A stretch of 42,076 nucleotides of DNA from a virus (lineage: Duplodnaviria; Caudoviricetes): positions 1 to 42,076 of the IMG/VR virus record IMGVR_UViG_3300033808_000078, one strand, 5' to 3'. Position 1 is the stretch's first letter. Each line of letters starts with the position of its first letter. This document shows, piece after piece, positions 2,124 through 28,745 of the stretch. The notes beneath the pieces are model-generated. The model saw only the letters and a program-made list of their open reading frames with translations, ran no database searches and was not told where the DNA came from. Both the position numbers and the translations under genes were made by a program.

Positions 2124-3440
2124 ATGGGTTGCGATACCTGCACTACTTATTGCCTCGATTATCCTCCTCCGCCCCCGCCTTGCTCCGTTTGCGACATGGC
2201 GTGCAACGGATACAGTTGCACCTGCGACGGCCCTTGTTATGGTTACTCAACGTCGACGAAGTATCGCGTTCAAATTGATGCGACTGGAACTCCTGACACA
2301 TTTAAATGGTCCAAGGATGGAGGGAACACGTGGAGCGCGACGGGCGTAGTGATTACCGGCGGATGGCAGACCTTGAACAATGGCGTCCAGATAAGCTTCG
2401 ATTCGACCACTGGTCACGCGCTCTCCGATTATTGGGATTTTTGGGCGGGCGACGGCGTCTGGGCAGGCGAAAGGCTAATATATTACTACAAGAATTATGG
2501 CGGCAATGATCTTATCTACCATTCCCTTCATCCCGGTACAGCCGGCCAAACGGTCGATTCAGCCCTCCAAGCGGAAGTTCCCGAATGGAATGAGGTAATG
2601 CCATACACGGCCTATTCCTATTTTCGGCTCACCTACGATGCGAATGCCTGGCAGGGAATCCCCGATTTTACGGCCCTCCTTAAAGGCAAGAAGCTCTACG
2701 ATCCAAGGAACGGCATGACGGCCTTCAGCCGCAACCCTGCGCTTGTCTGGCTTGATTTCTTGACGTCCGTTCGCTATGGGCTGGGTGTCCCGATCAGCAC
2801 TGTCAATTTGCAGAGCGTCATGAGCGCGGCGAATTGGTGTGATGCTAATAATTATTTTTTTGACGGTGCGATCATGGACAGGCAGGCCTTCATCGACAAC
2901 TTCGAAGAGCTGATGATGAACTTTCGGGCCTTCACCGTTTATAGCGAAGGAATCTATTATCTGAAGATCTTCACTTACGATGCCCCAGTGATGGCGCTTA
3001 CCGCTAGCGATATAGAAATATCTCCGGAATCGTTTACGATTAATAAAGCGGGGATTCCCGACACGCCCAATGCGGCCAAGGTGACTTTCACGGACGCCTC
3101 GAATAACTACACGGCCCAATATACTCAGGCGCAGGACCTGACCCAGATCGGTTACGATGCAGATCCAAGAGTTAAAGAGGTACTTCTAAAGGGGACGACG
3201 TCGCTGGCTCAGGCGGCTAGCCTCGCAAAGTATTGCTTGCTGCGCAATGAATTCAATACCGAATATGTACTCGTGGCTCATCCGCGATGCTATGTGCTCG
3301 AGCCTGGAGACATGATAACCGTGACGCATGAATTTCCAAACTGGAACAATAAGCTGGTCAGAGTCAAAGAGGTAACCTATCCCGCTTCTGGGATGATCAC
3401 CTTAACCTTAATGGACGAGGACTCTTCGATCTATGCCTGA
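2124..3440 (+). CDS. Tail tip gpJ-like protein, second part, starting with Cys-rich repeats
   Basis: LKGKKLYDPR..SRNPALVWLDFLTSVRYGLG, AANWCD, LEPGDMITVTH; AAGGAGG at 2104-2110; same frame as 1458-2105. Confidence 0.85.
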   Translation: MGCDTCTTYCLDYPPPPPPCSVCDMACNGYSCTCDGPCYGYSTSTKYRVQIDATGTPDTFKWSKDGGNTWSATGVVITGGWQTLNNGVQISFDSTTGHALSDYWDFWAGDGVWAGERLIYYYKNYGGNDLIYHSLHPGTAGQTVDSALQAEVPEWNEVMPYTAYSYFRLTYDANAWQGIPDFTALLKGKKLYDPRNGMTAFSRNPALVWLDFLTSVRYGLGVPISTVNLQSVMSAANWCDANNYFFDGAIMDRQAFIDNFEELMMNFRAFTVYSEGIYYLKIFTYDAPVMALTASDIEISPESFTINKAGIPDTPNAAKVTFTDASNNYTAQYTQAQDLTQIGYDADPRVKEVLLKGTTSLAQAASLAKYCLLRNEFNTEYVLVAHPRCYVLEPGDMITVTHEFPNWNNKLVRVKEVTYPASGMITLTLMDEDSSIYA

Positions 3441-4345: not shown

Positions 4346-5563
4346 ATGCTGCACCCAATCCTATATGCGACGCTTAACCTGACCCGAAACTGCAATCTCG
4401 CTTGTTCCTATTGCTTCAATTGGGGTAAAGGCAAGGGGCGAATGAATCTTGACACTGGAAAGAGATCGATCGACTTTCTTCTCAGGAACGCCCGTGAGGC
4501 CGACGAGATCTCTCTTCGCGGAAAAGGACGCCAGGTTGAATTACAGTTTTGGGGAGGGGAGCCACTGATTGAGTGGCCTCTGCTGAAGGACCTCGTGCAT
4601 TACGCTAAAAAAGCAAGCAAAGAGATTCCGGTTCGCTTCGGCGGCACGACCAATGGGACGCTTTTCACGCCGGATAAATTTACCTTCCTCAAAGAAAACC
4701 AGATCCATTTCGTCATCTCTTTCGACGGGACCCCGCAATCCCATGATACGCATAGGCGTTTCCGCAATGGAGGAGGATCCCACGCGACCATCGCCAGAAA
4801 TATTGAGGCTGGTCTGAAAATCTTCCCAGGCCTTCGGGTCCGGATGTCGCCATTTGCCGAAGGAATTGATCGATTCTATGAGGACGTAGCCTACATCATC
4901 GCCCTGGGGATTAGGCAGCTCATGTTTAGTCCAGTCTATGAATCTGGATGGACCGCAGAACGTTGGCAGACTTTCGACGCCCAGTGCCAGCAAGTCACGG
5001 ACCTTCTCCTGGCGCAGAGAGGCAAAGGCGATCCAGTTGAGATCGAGCACTACAAGAGCTATGCGAAATCAGATTCTTCACACTGGCCATGCGGCGCAGG
5101 TCGGACGTTTGTTGGAATCGATGTTGATGGATCCATTTATCCTTGCCATCGGTTTATAAAATTCAACGATGCGCGTCCATGGCATCTTCGGCCTACCTCA
5201 ATCGGCCATATAGATTTTGGGATCACGAATCCAGAATTTCGGAAAAGCTTTATTGATCGCAGGCCGACGAAATGCAACACATGCGGGTACGATAAGATCA
5301 CTCCTTGTCACGGCGGCTGCTACGCGGTGAATTACGACCTGACCGGCCATATCGCCACGCCGCCGGAGGTCCTTTGTAGATCGGTCGAGATCCAGTCGAC
5401 GATCTCACGGTCCTATCGTGAAAAATTTGGTCCAAAGGGATTTCCAGAAGCGGTCCACGTGCCGCCGACAAAACCCTCCGCATCAGGGATCATGGCCGTG
5501 GTCAAGCAAATGGAGGCCAGGATATCGGCGCTCGATAAGGTTCTCTCTCATGATGCGAATTAA
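4346..5563 (+). CDS. Radical SAM/SPASM-domain protein (anSME / thioether peptide maturase-like)
   Basis: CNLACSYC (CxxxCxxC), FWGGEPL, TTNGTL, ISFDG; SPASM CGAG..DGSIYPCHRF..CNTC..CHGGC..C. Confidence 0.95.
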   Translation: MLHPILYATLNLTRNCNLACSYCFNWGKGKGRMNLDTGKRSIDFLLRNAREADEISLRGKGRQVELQFWGGEPLIEWPLLKDLVHYAKKASKEIPVRFGGTTNGTLFTPDKFTFLKENQIHFVISFDGTPQSHDTHRRFRNGGGSHATIARNIEAGLKIFPGLRVRMSPFAEGIDRFYEDVAYIIALGIRQLMFSPVYESGWTAERWQTFDAQCQQVTDLLLAQRGKGDPVEIEHYKSYAKSDSSHWPCGAGRTFVGIDVDGSIYPCHRFIKFNDARPWHLRPTSIGHIDFGITNPEFRKSFIDRRPTKCNTCGYDKITPCHGGCYAVNYDLTGHIATPPEVLCRSVEIQSTISRSYREKFGPKGFPEAVHVPPTKPSASGIMAVVKQMEARISALDKVLSHDAN

Positions 5564-9402: not shown

Positions 9403-9810
9403 TTATTTGCTGGCATTCTCTACTTTTTTGATATCCTGCGCCGACTCTAACAACTGTGGATTCTCGTAAATGTTGCCAAGAACTTCAACTCCAAATTCCT
9501 CATCATCAGATATTATCAAACCAGTACCGCAAGCATCCCAATAATGCTTATTCCATTTAACTTCGCCAATTTTCCCATAGGCATTTGAATTTTTAACAAT
9601 ATCCCCCTCCCAAATCTCTTTGCCATTCTTGTCGTGGAGGCCGGTGAATTGCATAAGTGGCTTGTATTGTGTATTTAACATCAACTGCTTCAGTCTTGCA
9701 TGTTGATTGTCACAACAAGCCCATAGGCCATCCTGTTTCCACAAAAGCGACGTTACGATATACATTTTTTTCTCTCGATCATCCCACGCCCTAAACTTGA
9801 TCTCTCTCAT
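9403..9810 (-). CDS. YopX family protein
   Basis: MREIKFRAWD..LMQFTGLHDKNGKEIWEGDIV..EVLGNIYENPQLL. Confidence 0.92.
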   Translation of the reverse strand: MREIKFRAWDDREKKMYIVTSLLWKQDGLWACCDNQHARLKQLMLNTQYKPLMQFTGLHDKNGKEIWEGDIVKNSNAYGKIGEVKWNKHYWDACGTGLIISDDEEFGVEVLGNIYENPQLLESAQDIKKVENASK

Positions 9811-9827
9811 TCTCCCTCCACCTTCCT
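9807..9827. repeat. 21-bp direct repeat, copy 1 (TCATTCTCCCTCCACCTTCCT)
   Basis: Identical to 10521-10541; equals RBS+ATG on the minus strand. Confidence 0.85.
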
Positions 9828-10332
9828 ACTTTTCGATGAGTTTGTAGAGTTGAATATCAGGAAAGCTTTTTTTATCCTCATACTCCAGGGCAATCATTTG
9901 TTTGTGTAACTCAATCCCTTCCTCCAACTCCTTGATTCGGTCTTTCAATAGTTTAATACTACTAAGGGCTTGGTCAATGGCTTTTTCTCTCCCGTGCCAG
10001 GCTTCTATAGCTCCATCCCGTTCTTCTTCCAACTCCTTGATTCTGGACTCGGCCTTATTTGCTTCAGATAGCAAAAGACAACCCTTGCACCACTTTCTTT
10101 GATAGGGTGGATAATAAAGAATTTCCCGTTCCAACTCCTTGATTCGGGATTTGGCCTTGTCAAGATCATCTTGCAGATTCGAAAATTCTGCTAAGGTAGG
10201 AAATTTTAATGCATTCTGTTTTAATTCTTCAATCTCCTTCTCCTTCTCATTAAGGAGTTTCTGAATTAAATCTCTGTCATGCATATTGAAAAATGTAATT
10301 CTTTGTGTCTCCTCAATCTCTTCCTTCGTCAT
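9826..10332 (-). CDS. Coiled-coil hypothetical protein with three RIKELE repeats
   Basis: AGGAGG RBS; CCAACTCCTTGATTC occurs three times. Confidence 0.65.
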   Translation of the reverse strand: MTKEEIEETQRITFFNMHDRDLIQKLLNEKEKEIEELKQNALKFPTLAEFSNLQDDLDKAKSRIKELEREILYYPPYQRKWCKGCLLLSEANKAESRIKELEEERDGAIEAWHGREKAIDQALSSIKLLKDRIKELEEGIELHKQMIALEYEDKKSFPDIQLYKLIEK

Positions 10333-10344
10333 CTCAACCTCCTT

Positions 10345-10518
10345 GGCGGATGGCAGGATTCTCACCCACAGGGCCCAGGTTGTTTTCTTCTATCGTTATG
10401 GCAACCTTATCCGCTACTCGGATTACTCCTCACATTGTGCGGTTGGAGCTAGTACCACGAGACTTCAATTTGCGTCTCTCCCGCATTAAGCTCATTCACG
10501 CCCCTGAGCCACACCCGC
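10345..10518 (-). ncRNA. Degenerate tRNA-shaped element (Gly-like shell, expanded central region)
   Basis: GCGGGTG-TG-GCTCA..TGAGC ... GTGGG-TGAGAAT-CCTGC-CATCCGC: acceptor, D and T arms pair. Confidence 0.55.
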
Positions 10519-10520
10519 CA

Positions 10521-10541
10521 TCATTCTCCCTCCACCTTCCT
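10521..10541. repeat. 21-bp direct repeat, copy 2
   Basis: Identical to 9807-9827. Confidence 0.85.
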
Positions 10542-10562
10542 CAACTTCCTTCTGGACATGCT

Positions 10563-10829
10563 TCAATCGTTGCCATACTTGCTCGATGCTTTCGTCATTA
10601 TCTCTTCCAAACTTCCTGATAGCGTTTCTCTATAGGATTTGTGCACCCAGATCTCGCATTTATAGCTCATCTTATCCCACCATACGATGCCGAAGAAATT
10701 CCAAGCGGTATATTCCGCACAGATTCTTCCGCTTTTAAGACGCTCGGCAATCTCAAAATCTATCGAATCGTCAAAATTGCTCATAACCGTTTTTTCAATC
10801 CGCTTGTAATCCGACGGTATTCTTTTCAT
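10563..10829 (-). CDS. Conserved phage hypothetical protein
   Basis: VMSNFD..YTAWNFFGIVWW; RBS and coupling to the integrase stop. Confidence 0.65.
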   Translation of the reverse strand: MKRIPSDYKRIEKTVMSNFDDSIDFEIAERLKSGRICAEYTAWNFFGIVWWDKMSYKCEIWVHKSYRETLSGSLEEIMTKASSKYGND

Positions 10830-10830
10830 T

Positions 10831-11952
10831 TTATCCTTCCTTCCCCTTCCTCATTTGCAATATCTCCGCCGCCCTCTGCGTTGTCACCCTCGCGTAACTC
10901 TCTTCGACCACCTGCTCAGAATTCCCGAGAATCCTGGCGATGTCGGCCGTTGCGGTTCCACGGTTCTTTAACCGACAGGCCAGGGAAGTCCGGGTCCCGT
11001 TCTTTAACGGGATAACCCTTACTCCTGCCTTCTTCGATGCCCTCACCCAAATCCCATAAACGGCGGAACGGGTATATTTCAAGCCGTGGGAGGTTGAGAA
11101 GACGTAATGAAGATTGATGGGTGGGCAGGAACCGCCCCTGCTTGTCCCCGTAGTAATCCGGTCTGGGGGAAGGGACCCGGATATCTTCAACTTCCCTGCG
11201 TTTTCACATTGAACGCCACCACCCACCAAATCCTTCTCAATCTCTGGCATTATCGGAAGCACGTTGTCTTCCATGTTCTTTCGCCCTCTAAACGTGATCT
11301 CTCTTTTTTGCCAGTCGATGTCCGTTCTCTGAAGATTGCATGCCTCGCTTACTCGACAGCCATAGGTCGTCAAAAACCTCAAGATCGGTCTATGATGAGG
11401 CAATGCAGCCTCGACCACCTTGGTCTGCTCCTCCTCAACTAGCCATTCAAGTTTTTTCTTGGGGACGGTGATCTTGGGGAATCTCATCATCTTTTTACGG
11501 CTAATTTGGAAGGCATTGAGGAACGCCCGCAGAGTCACCCTGATCAGCCTGAGATATGCGGGAGAGTATGTCTTTGGTAGCTTGCTAAACCAATCCAGAA
11601 CATGATGCTCCTCGATATCGGCCAGCGTCATGTCTTTAAAATAAGGCTTTATAAAATCCTCAAAGATCCTATCCCGATCCCCCATCCTCACTCTGCCTAC
11701 GGGGTTCTGCTCCTGGTAGATTTTCCAGGCGTTGGGTACAAGGATCGTCTTGTCCTTGCCCCAGTTGATCGGATCGAAAGTCTTACCATCAACCTCGCTT
11801 TGGATCTGGGCAAGGACCCGCTTCGCCAGCTCCTCATTATAGAGCGGGATTCTATTGGCCCCATAATGGTTGAACCAAAGCCTTTTCCCCTTCCATGGGA
11901 AGTAGACCCTATACCTCTGCCTCCGCCGGTCAAAGTAGTATCCGCCCTTCAT
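10831..11952 (-). CDS. int: Tyrosine recombinase / integrase
   Basis: YGCRVSEACNL, GRK, NGTRTS, LGNS, ESYA; arm-binding-type N-terminus. Confidence 0.9.
   Translation of the reverse strand: MKGGYYFDRRRQRYRVYFPWKGKRLWFNHYGANRIPLYNEELAKRVLAQIQSEVDGKTFDPINWGKDKTILVPNAWKIYQEQNPVGRVRMGDRDRIFEDFIKPYFKDMTLADIEEHHVLDWFSKLPKTYSPAYLRLIRVTLRAFLNAFQISRKKMMRFPKITVPKKKLEWLVEEEQTKVVEAALPHHRPILRFLTTYGCRVSEACNLQRTDIDWQKREITFRGRKNMEDNVLPIMPEIEKDLVGGGVQCENAGKLKISGSLPPDRITTGTSRGGSCPPINLHYVFSTSHGLKYTRSAVYGIWVRASKKAGVRVIPLKNGTRTSLACRLKNRGTATADIARILGNSEQVVEESYARVTTQRAAEILQMRKGKEG
11116..11227 (-). ncRNA. Degenerate tRNA-shaped element (Leu-like shell) embedded in-frame in int
   Basis: GGTGGGTGG/CCACCCATC acceptor, GCGTT..AACGC D-arm, GCAGG-N7-CCTGC T-arm. 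Confidence 0.55.
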
Positions 11953-19290: not shown

Positions 19291-19613
19291 AAATGCTCAG
19301 AGAGGTTTACAAGCCTAAAGAGTCTGAGATCAAGAGATCCGTTCGGAAGTATCTCGCTCTCCGTGGAATCTTTAATTGGAATCAGTGGCAAGGCCAATTC
19401 TCGGTCAAAGGCGTTCCCGATATCGTGGGGATTATTCCAGGTAGTGGAAAGCTTCTAGGAATCGAGGTCAAATGCCCGGGAAAGAAACCAAGGCCAGAAC
19501 AGCAAGCCTTTTTAGACGAGATCAAAAGAAATGGAGGCATTGCGTTCGTTGTTACTTCGGTTGAAGAACTTGTTCAGAATCTGCAATGCTATGGAGGGCC
19601 AAGCAAATGTTAG
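19278..19613 (+). CDS. VRR-NUC domain nuclease
   Basis: ESEI..GVPDI..IEVK..PEQQAF..GGIAFVVTSVEE. Confidence 0.9.
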   Translation: MQKLKMLREVYKPKESEIKRSVRKYLALRGIFNWNQWQGQFSVKGVPDIVGIIPGSGKLLGIEVKCPGKKPRPEQQAFLDEIKRNGGIAFVVTSVEELVQNLQCYGGPSKC

Positions 19614-20176
19614 TGATTTCAGCCCAAATAAACCAAGAGGATATAAGAAATCTCTTACAGAGCTATTCATCTGCGTTAGTTCGCAAGGCAGTGAGGTCCG
19701 CGCTGGATCGCACGGGAACGTGGGGCAAGAACTATCTCGCCGATGACGTCAGCGCTAACTATAATCTTTCAAATAGCAGAGTGAAAAAAGCCATAACGGT
19801 TAGTCGAACAACACAGACCAGGTTGGAAGTTGCCTTAAACGTAAAAGGCGCTCAGTTGTCCATCCTAGATGATTTTGGCGCCATTCAAGATTCGGCAGGG
19901 ATCTCGGCGAATATAAGCAGGACAAGTGTTTTTCGCGTCCCCCATGCATTCATTAATGTGGCTAGAAGAGGCGGCGGACGGTTCATAGCGATCCGCACAT
20001 CAAGGTCCAGATATCCGACAAGTGGTAAACCAGGACGCGGCCCAAGTTTGCCGATGCTGGTAAACAGGATGAATCATAGAGAAAAGATGGAGTCGGATCT
20101 AACGGACCATTTATACAAAGAACTTCAGGACCAAATCGCAAAGAGGACGCTGGGATCCGCAGGCACGGCAGCATAG
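19607..20176 (+). CDS. Minor tail protein Z-like
   Basis: AVRSALDRT..VPHAFI..R..RYP..GPSLP; located before cos/terminase. Confidence 0.65.
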   Translation: MLVISAQINQEDIRNLLQSYSSALVRKAVRSALDRTGTWGKNYLADDVSANYNLSNSRVKKAITVSRTTQTRLEVALNVKGAQLSILDDFGAIQDSAGISANISRTSVFRVPHAFINVARRGGGRFIAIRTSRSRYPTSGKPGRGPSLPMLVNRMNHREKMESDLTDHLYKELQDQIAKRTLGSAGTAA

Positions 20177-24669: not shown

Positions 24670-26201
24670 AGCTAATCGATAGGGTGCTCAGGAAATTCGG
24701 ATACCAGAAAAGCAAGCCGCTTACTCGTCGGACTTTCGAAGCCGCGGCTGTCAACCGGCTGACGATGGACTGGGGCACGACTCCTTTCTCCGCCGACTGG
24801 GACATCCGCTACACGCTCCGGCAGCTGCGCGCCAGATCCCGGGATCTCTCAAACAACAATGAGTATGCCCGGAAGTTCATCAAGATGTGCGTCTCGAATG
24901 TCGTGGGCCCCGATGGGATCATGTTCCGGTCGACGATGAAGGACAAAAACGGCAGGCCTGACAAGGGAAACAACCAGGCAGTCATGGATGCCTGGGCCGA
25001 GTGGGGCAAGAGAGAGAACTGCACGGTAACCGGGCTCCTTTCCTGGCCGGCCCTTCAACGCCAGGTGATCGAGACTGTCGCCAGGGACGGCGAGATCTTC
25101 CTCCGGATCGTAAGAAACTTCCCGAACGATTTTGGCTTCGCGCTCCAGGCGCTCGAGGCCGAGTACATGGACGTGAACCTCAACCGCCCTGGGGAGAACA
25201 TCCGTATGGCGATCGAGTATGACGACTGGAGAAGACCCATCGCCTACTGGGTGATGGCATCCAACATCTATGACTACCAACCGCCGATGCACGCCCTGAA
25301 GTACATCCGCTACCCCGCGAGCGACATCATCCACATCTATTGGCAAGAGAGGCCCGAGCAAGGGAGAGGGATCCCCTGGATGAGTTCCGCCATGATGAAC
25401 ATGCAGATGCTCAGGGGATACAAAGAATCCGAGCTCGTCAGCGCCCGCGTGAGCGCGGCCAAGATGGGATTCCTCGAGCCAGGAGACAAAGGCGCAGAGG
25501 ACGCCTACACAGGTGACGATCAGGATTCCCAGGGGAACACGATTACGGAGGTCGAACCCGGGATGATCGAACAGCTCCCCAGGGGCTATAAATTTTCGAC
25601 TTTCGATCCGCAGCATCCCACAACGCAATTTGATTCTTTTGTGAAATCATGCCTCCGAGGGATTTCTTCGGGATTCCTGGTTTCCTATAACTCTCTGGCC
25701 AACGACCTCGAACACGTCAACTACTCCTCGATCCGGCAGGGCGTGATCGATGAGCGCGACATGTGGAGGATCCTCCAGGCGCTCCTCATTGAAAGTTTAT
25801 GCCAGCCGGTCTTCAAGGCGTGGCTTCCGATCGCGATGGCCAAAGGCAAGATCCGGATCCCGATGACGAAGCTCGACGATTCCCAAGTGAAGTGGCGCCC
25901 CAGGGGATGGGACTGGGTCGATCCCCTGAAAGACCAGCAGGCCATGGTGATGGCGATCAACACGGGCCTCCAATCGAGGAAGGACACACTCGCCGAGCAG
26001 GGCGAGGACTTCTACGAGCTGATAGACGAGATCGCCGATGAGCATGCCTACATCAAGCAGAAGGGCCTCGACTTTAACGTCACGCCGACGGGCGTGCCCT
26101 CCAAGTTCGGCGCGAGCCCACAGCCCCAGGCGCCGGTGCAAGAGGGCCAGCAAACGGTGAGCCCTTCGGCAAGGCGCGCAGCAAAGGAAGCGGAGGCGTA
26201 A
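24666..26201 (+). CDS. Portal protein, lambda family
   Basis: LRARSRDL..VVG..RDGEIF..RPEQGRGIPW..NYSSIR..WVDPLKD. Confidence 0.95.
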   Translation: MKLIDRVLRKFGYQKSKPLTRRTFEAAAVNRLTMDWGTTPFSADWDIRYTLRQLRARSRDLSNNNEYARKFIKMCVSNVVGPDGIMFRSTMKDKNGRPDKGNNQAVMDAWAEWGKRENCTVTGLLSWPALQRQVIETVARDGEIFLRIVRNFPNDFGFALQALEAEYMDVNLNRPGENIRMAIEYDDWRRPIAYWVMASNIYDYQPPMHALKYIRYPASDIIHIYWQERPEQGRGIPWMSSAMMNMQMLRGYKESELVSARVSAAKMGFLEPGDKGAEDAYTGDDQDSQGNTITEVEPGMIEQLPRGYKFSTFDPQHPTTQFDSFVKSCLRGISSGFLVSYNSLANDLEHVNYSSIRQGVIDERDMWRILQALLIESLCQPVFKAWLPIAMAKGKIRIPMTKLDDSQVKWRPRGWDWVDPLKDQQAMVMAINTGLQSRKDTLAEQGEDFYELIDEIADEHAYIKQKGLDFNVTPTGVPSKFGASPQPQAPVQEGQQTVSPSARRAAKEAEA

Positions 26202-28745
26202 ATGCCTTACCCGAACGAGCATGCCTGAAGGCTCCTTGAGCCGATCAAGGGCGCCGAGACCCGGCGGGTCAACGGTGACAGGGACCATGACGGCAAGAAG
26301 TACGACGTAATTTACCAGAAGCAGAAAGACGGTAAATGGGAGGATCAGGCTTATCGCTACCCGAAGGAGACCTGGACGGCCAGCCAGGCCGAGAGCCATT
26401 GCAAGAGCCACAAGGGAAGGTTCGAGGCCGCGAGCGGTGGCGAGAAAAAGTCAAGTGATGACTTGGAGGTCAGATCGATGAAACTTAATTCAAAAGGCGT
26501 CGGCCATGCGCGATCGCTGATCGCCTCTGGCAAAGTCGACCGAAATTCGAGCTGGGGATTTTCCGGGGAGGACGGCGACAAAATCCTCGGAAAGGACAAC
26601 TGGGATGAATACTCAAAATGGTTCCTGGCAACCGACCCCGATGAAAACGAGAAGACCAAGGCGCACTATAAATACCCTTATGGCAAAGACGGCAAAGTTT
26701 ACCGCTCGGGTGTGATCGCTGCCAAGCAGAGGGCAGCCCAACAGAGAGAGTCCTCTATCGCGGATGCCGCCGACTCACTGCTTCAGTCGATCGATAAAGA
26801 CAAGAAGGGAGAGAAAAGCGTTCTCAAAACCAAAATGTTCTTCCGGCAGTTCGAAATCAAACAGGGCGACATCGATAAGGAAAAACGGACAGTCAATCTG
26901 TCCTTTTCAAGCGAAACACCAGTGGATCGCTTCTATGGGAAGGAGATTCTTGACCATTCGCCCACGTCCGTCAGGATGGGTCGGCTAAGGAGTGGGGGAC
27001 CGCTCCTGGTCAATCATAATCCGGACGATCAGGTGGGCGTTATAGAGAAGGCTAATGTCGGAGCGGACCGCGTGGGGCGGGCCGAAGTTCGCTTCGGGAG
27101 AAGCGCGCGTGCTGAAGAAGTCTTCAACGACGTCCAGGATGGGATCAGGAGATTCACTTCCACGGGCTATCGCGTTTATCGGATGGCGGAAGAAGGCGAT
27201 CATGCGGCCAATGACGAGCCCTGCTACCGGGCCACGGACTGGGAACCCCATGAAATTTCGATTGCAAGCATTCCCGCGGATCCCAGCGTCGGCATCGGAC
27301 GGAGCTCGCCCGAAGAAAACGAACTCGTGATGGTCCGGTGGGTTCAAAAAGATCCGGATCAAACGCCGAACGAACAAAGGCAGAAGGAGGCAAAAAAAAT
27401 GAATTGCACGATTTGTAGCGCAGCACTCGTCGACGGGAAATGTCCCGCCTGCGAAACAAGGAAGATGGAACAGCAACGGACGCGAGAGATTTTTGCCATC
27501 GCAGACAAATTCAAAGATACGGTCCCAAGTGCCCTCGATCTGGCAAGGACTGCCATCGAGAAAGGAGAAACCGAGGAGCAGTTTCGAAAGATCATCCTCG
27601 ACGCAATGGGCACGCCCAAGCCAACCCCGGACAAGGACAAAGCACTTCCCGCCCCAAAGGAGAAGATGTTTCGGTCCTTTGGAGAGAATCTTCAATACAT
27701 CGCCATTATGAGCGATACAACGCCAGGCCATGTACTGGCGAGAAAGATGTTCAGCCAGGATCAGGTCAAGCATTGGATGGATGTCAACCGTGCCATCTCT
27801 GGCATGAGCGTCAGCGTGCCGAGTGATGGCGGCTTCATGGTCGACACCGAATTCACAACCGCCCTCCTGAAGAACATGTGGGATACCGGCCTATTGATGA
27901 GCCGGTGCACAAGGATCCCGGTAGGTCCCGATGCAGACGGAATCGAAGGGCCGTACATCGATGAGACAAGCCGTGCCACTGGATACCGTTGGGGCGGCGT
28001 GCAGGTGTATCGCCAGCCGGAAGCCGGCGCAGCAACAGCCAAACAGCCGAAACTCGGAAAATTCGAAATTCGGCTCGAAGACCTAAAGGGATTGGTCTAC
28101 ATCACCAACCGCCTACTGAGAGACGCCGTTGCGCTCGAAGCCTGGGTCTCCAGGGCGTTTCTCGAGGAATTCGGTTTTGTGATCGATGATGAAATCATCC
28201 GTGGTGATGGCGCAGGTCAGTGTCTCGGAATCCTTAACTGCCCCGCCTTGATTACTGTAACGAAAGAAAGTGGCCAGGCGGCCTCAACCGTTCAGTTCGA
28301 AAACCTGACGAAGATGTTCTCTCGCCTTCTCGGAAAGCTTAGACCGAACGCGGTGTGGTTCTACAACCAGGAAATCGAGCCGCAGTTGTTCGGCCTTGGC
28401 ATCACCCTCGGCACGGGCGGGGCACCAGTCTTTATGCCTGCTGGCGGGCTGAGCGCAAGTCCCTACAATACCCTTTTTGGACGCCCGATGATTCCAATCG
28501 AGCAGGCTTCTCAGCTCGGAACCGTGGGCGATCTCATGTTCCTGGACCTCAGCCAATACCTCATTGTCGATAAAGGCGGGATCGAGGCGGCCCAGTCGAT
28601 GCATGTGAGGTTCATATACGACGAAATGACGTTCAAATGGACATATCGCATCAACGGCCAGCCCGCGCCTCCGTGGAAGGCTCCGCTTACACCGTACAAA
28701 GGTGCGAATACCCTGGGGCCATTCGTGGTACTCGGCGCAAGATAA
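26202..28745 (+). CDS. Prohead protease-major capsid fusion; N-terminal PYPNEHA domain with in-frame TGA at 26226-26228; internal starts at 26478 and 27399
   Basis: Single frame 26202-28745; SFSSETPV..LLVNH..STGY..EISIASIPAD protease; SDGGFMV..HK97-type capsid. Confidence 0.9.

Follow-up and report, generated by a model that had tools for sequence, protein, structure and literature searches.

The window analysed here, a stretch of 42,076 nucleotides, is the whole of the virus record IMGVR_UViG_3300033808_000078 and bears a 175-nt terminal repeat. Pfam and NCBIfam matches identified an integrase, RecT, a lambda-type terminase and portal and a protease-capsid fusion, and judged from its sequence the window is a complete temperate tailed phage. 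This report deals with the N-terminal domain of the protease-capsid polyprotein, which is interrupted at its ninth codon by an in-frame TGA that is likely a selenocysteine (Sec) codon. The locus contains the following features, with energies given for the duplex of the Shine-Dalgarno (SD) sequence with the anti-SD.

26192-26196, + strand: SD sequence GGAGG of the long isoform, located within the 3' end of the portal gene (-9.5 kcal/mol)
26202-26435, + strand: N-terminal head-accessory domain of ~78 amino acids, PYPNEHA[U/C]RL...QAYRYPK..W...HC...GxFEAA
26226-26228, + strand: TGA in frame, in place of the invariant Cys9; likely codes for Sec
26397-26402, + strand: conserved His66-Cys67, candidate partner of residue 9 in a putative Se-S bond or metal site
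26465-26480, + strand: internal SD GGAGG (26465-26469) with ATG 26478, Sec-independent start of the polyprotein (-10.0 kcal/mol)
26478-26798, + strand: second unnamed head module, matching positions 4-107 of phrog_34096
27000-27287, + strand: prohead protease S78 (Pfam), amino acids 267-362
27384-27401, + strand: third nested start, AAGGAGG with ATG 27399, in front of a CxxC..CxxC motif and the capsid part (about -11.7 kcal/mol, computed one base off)
27828-28667, + strand: major capsid domain PF05065 (Pfam), amino acids 543-822, in an open reading frame (ORF) ending with TAA 28745

The portal gene stops with TAA at 26199-26201, directly 5' of ATG 26202. The frame opened by this ATG contains the single TGA and is then open to TAA 28745, giving a product of 847 amino acids with TGA read as Sec (U). 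Thus, the frame described in the initial annotation, in which GGAGG, ATG and TGA are joined to protease and capsid, was confirmed, and so was its remark that the ORF track misses this N-terminus, as the standard list opens the protease-capsid ORF only at 26463. The second ribosome-binding site with ATG 26478 was likewise found where it had been placed. The product from there matches the N-terminus of phrog_34096, a head maturation protease. Read support had been suggested as a further check, and a Logan contig of depth 25 carries a 2-kb stretch, including the TGA, with zero differing letters. The run holding the sequence bears the label peat metagenome and possibly gave rise to the window itself; although the contig speaks against an error of assembly, it does not count as independent.

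Residues 1-78 matched no family of Pfam, NCBIfam or PHROG. The domain comprised 2,824 clusters at 50% identity, with 64 near-length homologues, and was fused to prohead proteases, scaffolds and portals. Among the 100 of the top 150 representatives that were scanned, it was most often joined to prohead proteases of the S78, ClpP and S49 classes, preceding or following them, and we regard it as an undescribed accessory of these three unrelated protease classes. Cys9 was present in 209/209 homologous proteins and Cys67 in 205/209 (four gaps), while His7 and His66 were each present in 206/209; these homologues are the top matches of a Cys-built query, in which divergent members are under-sampled. 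The motif PYPNEHACRL with a partner HC, which the initial annotation gave as common in this head domain, is thus real, and the window keeps the HC. An AlphaFold2 model (mean pLDDT 80.9) consists of a five-strand sheet and one helix, and its sole structural match with E < 0.001 was the model of a viral prohead protease. No clear solved relative was obtained with Foldseek against the PDB (best E 0.13) or VIA-align (best Z 4.5, rmsd 3.4, 51 aligned residues), and the ESM Atlas, queried with a Cys homologue, returned only unnamed viral clusters below 0.9. The domain sequence has no CxxU or UxxC motif and the model no thioredoxin fold.

Codon 9 was surveyed in IMG/VR with one DNA pattern in which this codon alone was varied. 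TGA was found in 18 contigs and TGY in about 640 (an estimate based on 12 of 64 parts), while TAA, TAG and TGG did not occur with the same pattern. One-step nonsense codons at the neighbouring Glu6 were also absent from IMG/VR, and none of 120 TGY loci, two of them cut by the locus end, had a stop codon inside the domain. A metagenome scan gave 35 matches, 26 of them with the domain and nine chance matches that were dropped. With 12 chance matches removed in all, 45 TGA loci including the window remained, which represent 24 distinct sequences at <85% nucleotide identity; a looser TGA pattern found one more contig (L212), which stands outside all counts. The domain was intact past the UGA in 23 of the 24 distinct sequences, and one further locus that is not a representative (L159) is cut by the contig end. 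Among 17 TGA copies scanned, the domain was joined to proteases of the S78, ClpP and S49 classes, to DUF2213 proteins, to the C-termini of portals or to unassigned ORFs, and it also occurred as an ORF of its own. The portal C-terminal position was seen in L001 (3290-5053), L147 and L170, where failed recoding would merely shorten the portal.

Purifying selection acts on the domain past the UGA. The ratio of nonsynonymous to synonymous substitution rates (dN/dS) of the post-UGA part was 0.05, 0.07, 0.24, 0.02 and 0.10 for the five TGA-TGA pairs that are closest, with protein identities of 84% or more, and its median was 0.22 over 14 TGA pairs. In a quick tree with codon 9 masked (22 TGA and 94 Cys sequences, 79 columns), the TGA/Cys label needed 11 changes compared to 20 when shuffled. 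The TGA copies are thus clustered on the tree but, as far as this tree can tell, probably do not go back to a single origin.

Elsewhere in the phages with TGA copies, TGA is an ordinary stop. Their genes end in TGA with ATGA overlaps, and downstream of the site, ORFs with a length of 300-840 codons encode Trp by TGG and contain no further TGA. Whole-genome stop reassignment is known in other phages, but these observations leave a variant genetic code, a UGA suppressor tRNA or a sequencing error with a practically negligible probability. Neither a tRNA gene nor an Rfam match was found in the window, and the related loci scanned held no suppressor tRNA and no credible tRNA at all (one anticodon-less call among 23 loci). 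An error is further contradicted by the recurrence of TGA in independent contigs of many sequences, with which the depth-25 contig agrees. Candidates for tRNA-Sec in two relatives (G003 and G005) were below cut-off and unsupported by ARAGORN. A second Cys/TGA pair was not found in any coding frame of the window compared with the fetched loci.

A bacterial selenocysteine insertion sequence (bSECIS) is defined by a loop of 3-9 nt, a stem of 4-16 bp, a G in the first two loop positions, a distance of 16-37 nt from the UGA and an energy of at most -7.5 kcal/mol, as given in the accessible part of PMC13188914. These published rules were applied in an own implementation, not with bSECISearch. A hairpin of this type follows most TGA copies and few Cys copies: the consensus was found in 20/24 TGA and 20/106 Cys sequences (p 4e-9), and the form with a G[G/U] loop in 17/24 and 4/106 (p 2e-12), p-values that are inflated by relatedness among the sequences. 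For z-scores, the fixed-register test and the tree, a smaller set of 94 Cys sequences was used. Compared with synonymous shuffles, the folding z of positions +6..+39 was on average -1.97 for TGA and -0.03 for Cys sequences (24 and 94), and no difference between them was seen at +45..+135. The main subtype has a 7-bp stem and a GUA or GUU loop with its G at +21; it was present in 13/16 TGA and 0/19 Cys sequences and in none of three Cys copies that share the same Gln codon position. The Cys copy L099 encodes the same 12 residues as the TGA copies L011 and L012, yet forms only three of the seven pairs. Two-sided changes were observed in six of the seven pairs, a value reached in 0/500 shuffles and lost in slid controls; the 19 TGA rows used were hand-picked for a shared register, and this choice and their relatedness inflate the covariation signal.

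The hairpin also bears on programmed leaky read-through, in which a near-cognate Trp- or Cys-tRNA would set the ratio of long to short product as in Qbeta and the hairpin would act as a stimulator. The two-isoform layout would suit such a mechanism, and read-through of a phage UGA is known from Qbeta (PMC8310308, in the part available). It is nevertheless very improbable here, as the UGA lies within a folded domain at a position that is Cys and never Trp (TGG 0; Cys 209/209), UAA and UAG never replace it, the hairpin has SECIS spacing and a G[G/U] loop, and termination at this site would leave only an 8-residue peptide.

Three hairpins can be drawn downstream of the UGA in the window itself.

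26234-26250, + strand: hairpin 1, CCTTGA-GCCGA-TCAAGG, loop 11 nt from the UGA
26252-26266, + strand: hairpin 2, CGCCG-AGACC-CGGCG, spacing 28, in accordance with the basic rule but without G[G/U]; P 0.60 when unconstrained
26252-26277, + strand: hairpin 3, GACCC-GGC-GGGUC (26258-26270) on a lower stem 26252-26256/26273-26277, spacing 34, G[G] loop

Hairpins 1 and 2 had been proposed in the initial annotation and both exist at the positions given there. At 11 nt, hairpin 1 is too close for the 16-37 nt rule and thus is not the SECIS apical loop. Hairpin 2 fits the basic rule, but it lacks the G[G/U] loop and has to compete with the overlapping hairpin 3. With the first 11-13 nt held unpaired as the assumed ribosome footprint, hairpin 3 was favoured in the folding model (P 0.62-0.93), and under this assumption it would be the better SECIS candidate. 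Folding of 26234-26270 gave a z of -1.87, with 9/200 shuffles equally stable. The window's own SECIS is suggestive only, and the case for this copy leans mainly on the family.

A rival reading is that the family uses Sec but the window copy is a recent TGC/TGT-to-TGA nonsense mutation, by which a dispensable domain is lost, with rescue from the start at 26478. Cys in all of the 18 nearest relatives would fit this view, as would the strong backup start and a hairpin that deviates from the family form and lacks significance by itself. With dS finite, comparison of the window with Cys relatives gave a dN/dS of about 0.13-0.23, which mostly reflects the time before the codon changed. However, a random nonsense mutation would hardly have hit the one codon that is UGA-recoded elsewhere, given that comparable sites showed neither a nonsense nor a TGG codon while Cys copies numbered about 640. 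In the window, the long form keeps its SD and all conserved residues, and a G[G/U] SECIS is formed there, compared with only 1/18 near Cys relatives (4/18 pass the basic rule). Altogether, a nonsense mutation is considered unlikely.

An SD with an in-frame start within 25 codons after the N-terminal domain was found in 14/18 TGA and 15/39 Cys sequences (p 0.01). Such an enrichment is expected if inefficient insertion of Sec must not limit the supply of protease and capsid; it also fits a dispensable domain. The long and short isoforms postulated initially are consistent with this enrichment and with the strong SDs at 26202 and 26478; the long form would come from decoding of the UGA.

Evidence on hosts came from one provirus with a TGA copy (G003), which is flanked by GalE and a host CysK-CysS fusion (L179:1114-3489). 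The fusion is 80% identical to a deltaproteobacterial protein. Among its 14 named homologues, 11 belong to Deltaproteobacteria, Desulfobacteraceae or Thermodesulfobacteriota and three to Pseudomonadota, which points to a deltaproteobacterial host of the provirus. Deltaproteobacteria/Desulfobacterota are rich in selenoproteins, as described in the part of PMC5029168 at hand.

This host also speaks for a variant of the recoding mechanism, in which the SECIS directs insertion of Cys, alone or mixed with Sec, by selC*/tRNA-ReC and SelB in deltaproteobacterial or other anaerobic hosts. tRNA-ReC reads UGA as Cys given a SECIS and occurs in deltaproteobacteria (PMC13582414 and PMC5389517, accessible sections), and since Cys is ancestral at this position, its insertion would yield the normal protein. 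On the other hand, tRNA-ReC was found in about 13-17% of the genomes examined (PMC13582414, same section), and the full Sec apparatus exists alongside the selC genes (PMC5389517, likewise), so that Sec-tRNA would compete. A UGA with a hairpin merely to restore Cys would moreover have no obvious benefit. Hence, we consider insertion of Cys rather improbable.

Taken together, the UGA at 26226-26228 is quite likely a Sec codon that is decoded by the SelB/Sec-tRNA of the host, with a Sec-free start at 26478. This interpretation is well supported for the family and somewhat less so for the window copy. The initial annotation, in which Sec was proposed, is supported, as TGA occurs at the same codon in 44 other loci with 23 distinct sequences, the downstream domain shows purifying instead of relaxed selection and the assembly itself reads TGA.

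Several observations weigh against it, besides the relatedness mentioned above. One TGA copy (L149) has a canonical-looking hairpin, yet its domain ends after 35 codons without resumption in other frames, and another (L009) has U but no Cys67. On the 79-column tree, the starred branches force only two label changes. All of the 18 nearest relatives of the window copy, found with the post-UGA part of the domain, have TGY, so that it is a singleton in its clade; the starred group that contains it on the tree has three Cys rows besides, and a pattern for close EPIKGA-type relatives found none. As its post-UGA sequence is unlike the main subtype, it is without the +21 hairpin, and 26-32% of its synonymous shuffles pass the basic rule and 6-9% yield the G[G/U] form (2000 draws). 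Concerning the host, the window shares only 7/61 ORFs with the provirus G003, mostly at 29-41% identity, and tblastn searches of plasmids and phages with the window gave distant matches only. No host genome with selABCD is tied to a TGA copy, as the scan of genome contigs for TGA prophages gave three matches, all by chance and without the domain.

If Sec is inserted, ribosomes starting at 26202 would use the host SelB/Sec-tRNA bound to the hairpin just downstream. In a fraction of events Sec, rather than Cys, would be incorporated at position 9, leading to a long, Sec-bearing protease-capsid polyprotein, while initiation at 26478 would provide a Sec-free form regardless of the selenium supply. 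The window copy, apparently a recent Cys-to-UGA change with its own hairpin, would be decoded in the same way. The hosts would be Sec-rich anaerobes such as Desulfobacterota, as suggested by the one provirus. A Sec9-Cys67 selenenylsulfide is among the most speculative points. An Se-S or S-S bond between residues 9 and 67 is plausible because both Cys are conserved and 17/25 TGA rows have a second, clade-linked Cys pair in the hairpin; the copy without Cys67 argues against an obligatory Se-S bond. Alternatively, residue 9 could form a metal site with His7, His66 and Cys67. Equally speculatively, the domain would be stabilised in this way and have its function in the assembling prohead, and the long form would be a minor, selenium-dependent fraction.

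Further modules were noticed in the head proteins. In the relatives L002 and L018, yet another module occupies the slot of the window's module at 26478-26798. A CxxC-x10-CxxC motif precedes the capsid domain (27384-27460), with similar motifs in L011 and near the C-termini of the portals of L001, L147 and L170; it is a small putative zinc ribbon and would be another mobile head module. Outside the head genes, a PapB-like radical SAM/SPASM maturase (match to NCBIfam NF047865 below cut-off) is encoded two genes behind a tail protein with a Cys-rich N-terminus (4346-5563 and 2124-3440), and possibly represents phage-encoded thioether modification of this tail protein. Short direct repeats of 21-30 nt with spacings of about 100 and 714 lie just after the end of the integrase (9807-10851) and are a possible att region or repeated gene starts. 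A Se-cys_synth_N Pfam match on a minor-tail-Z-like ORF (19586-20176) was below cut-off with 21.3 compared to 22 bits and was judged to be due to chance.

As far as is known, selenoproteins of prokaryotes belong to cells and are for the most part redox enzymes. The domain is a candidate for a new selenoprotein family in an unreported setting. No report of a phage selenoprotein was found in a literature search that left paywalled papers and most supplements outside; the viral selenoproteins found in print were poxvirus peroxidases. Phage, capsid and virus are unmentioned in the main text of PMC13188914, PMC12013277 and PMC13326102, as far as these were accessible, and in one possibly incomplete supplement of PMC13326102, and the 119-family table of PMC13188914, in the form available, has no phage or capsid entry. 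A predicted tRNA-Sec gene exists in Bacillus phages, according to the portion of PMC6145125 consulted. Parts of PMC9402790, PMC2398784, PMC13326102, PMC13745706 and bioRxiv 10.1101/2022.07.06.499078 also belonged to the literature base.

If true, the 21st amino acid would extend to bacteriophages and to a non-enzymatic role in assembly. The matched natural Cys/Sec pairs and the repeated gain or loss of a SECIS within a domain of ~78 amino acids would make the Cys-to-Sec question directly testable. As the host must have SelB, a Sec codon with SECIS could serve as host marker for uncultured phages. In practice, gene callers cut such head genes short, as the standard ORF track did with this N-terminus. 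In a wider sense, we lean slightly towards the view that phages of Sec-rich anaerobes repeatedly turned a head-assembly domain into a selenoprotein, with SECIS elements arising de novo, a backup start, and the selenium supply setting the dose of an Se-S-locked or Se-metal domain. This would be the first bacteriophage selenoprotein family and the first Sec in a structural polyprotein of a virus.

Close known relatives are the Cys-type members of the same domain, which have the same motifs, predicted fold and fusion partners and include weak matches in capsid genes of Roseobacter phages CRP-8xx and Synechococcus phages S-CBS1/3 and the prohead protease A0A6J5MVR2 of BFVD. They differ in their TGY codon, in the rarity of the SECIS-type hairpin and in less frequent backup starts. 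Nested starts are familiar from lambda C/Nu3, where one ORF has an in-frame internal start. The NF045541-type protease-capsid fusion of the relative G003 likewise has in-frame internal starts for protease-capsid and capsid-only forms; in the window, an extra upstream isoform gated by UGA recoding would be added to such an arrangement. Qbeta coat/A1 also has a UGA in a phage structural gene and two products. There, the UGA ends a complete protein, while the one described here stands for a Cys at codon 9, within a domain, and is followed by a SECIS-type loop. Use of the host Sec machinery by a virus has its precedent in the poxvirus selenoproteins, the GPx1-like protein of molluscum contagiosum and the GPx4-like protein of fowlpox (PMC8310308, accessible part). 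These are host-derived peroxidases with a eukaryotic SECIS, in contrast to a phage-specific domain with a bacterial SECIS on structural and assembly proteins. With bacterial selenoproteins (SelA/SelB/SelC/SelD; 119 families in Table 1 of PMC13188914, as available), the phage domain shares the UGA aligned to a conserved Cys and the G-loop hairpin 16-37 nt downstream within the coding sequence. Its sporadic Cys/Sec interchange across the tree resembles that of Group 4 [NiFe] hydrogenases (PMC13582414, part available). Unlike these bacterial proteins, it sits in head-assembly proteins and not in a Trx-like or CxxU/UxxC redox enzyme, and owing to its backup internal start, the essential protease and capsid would not depend on Sec.

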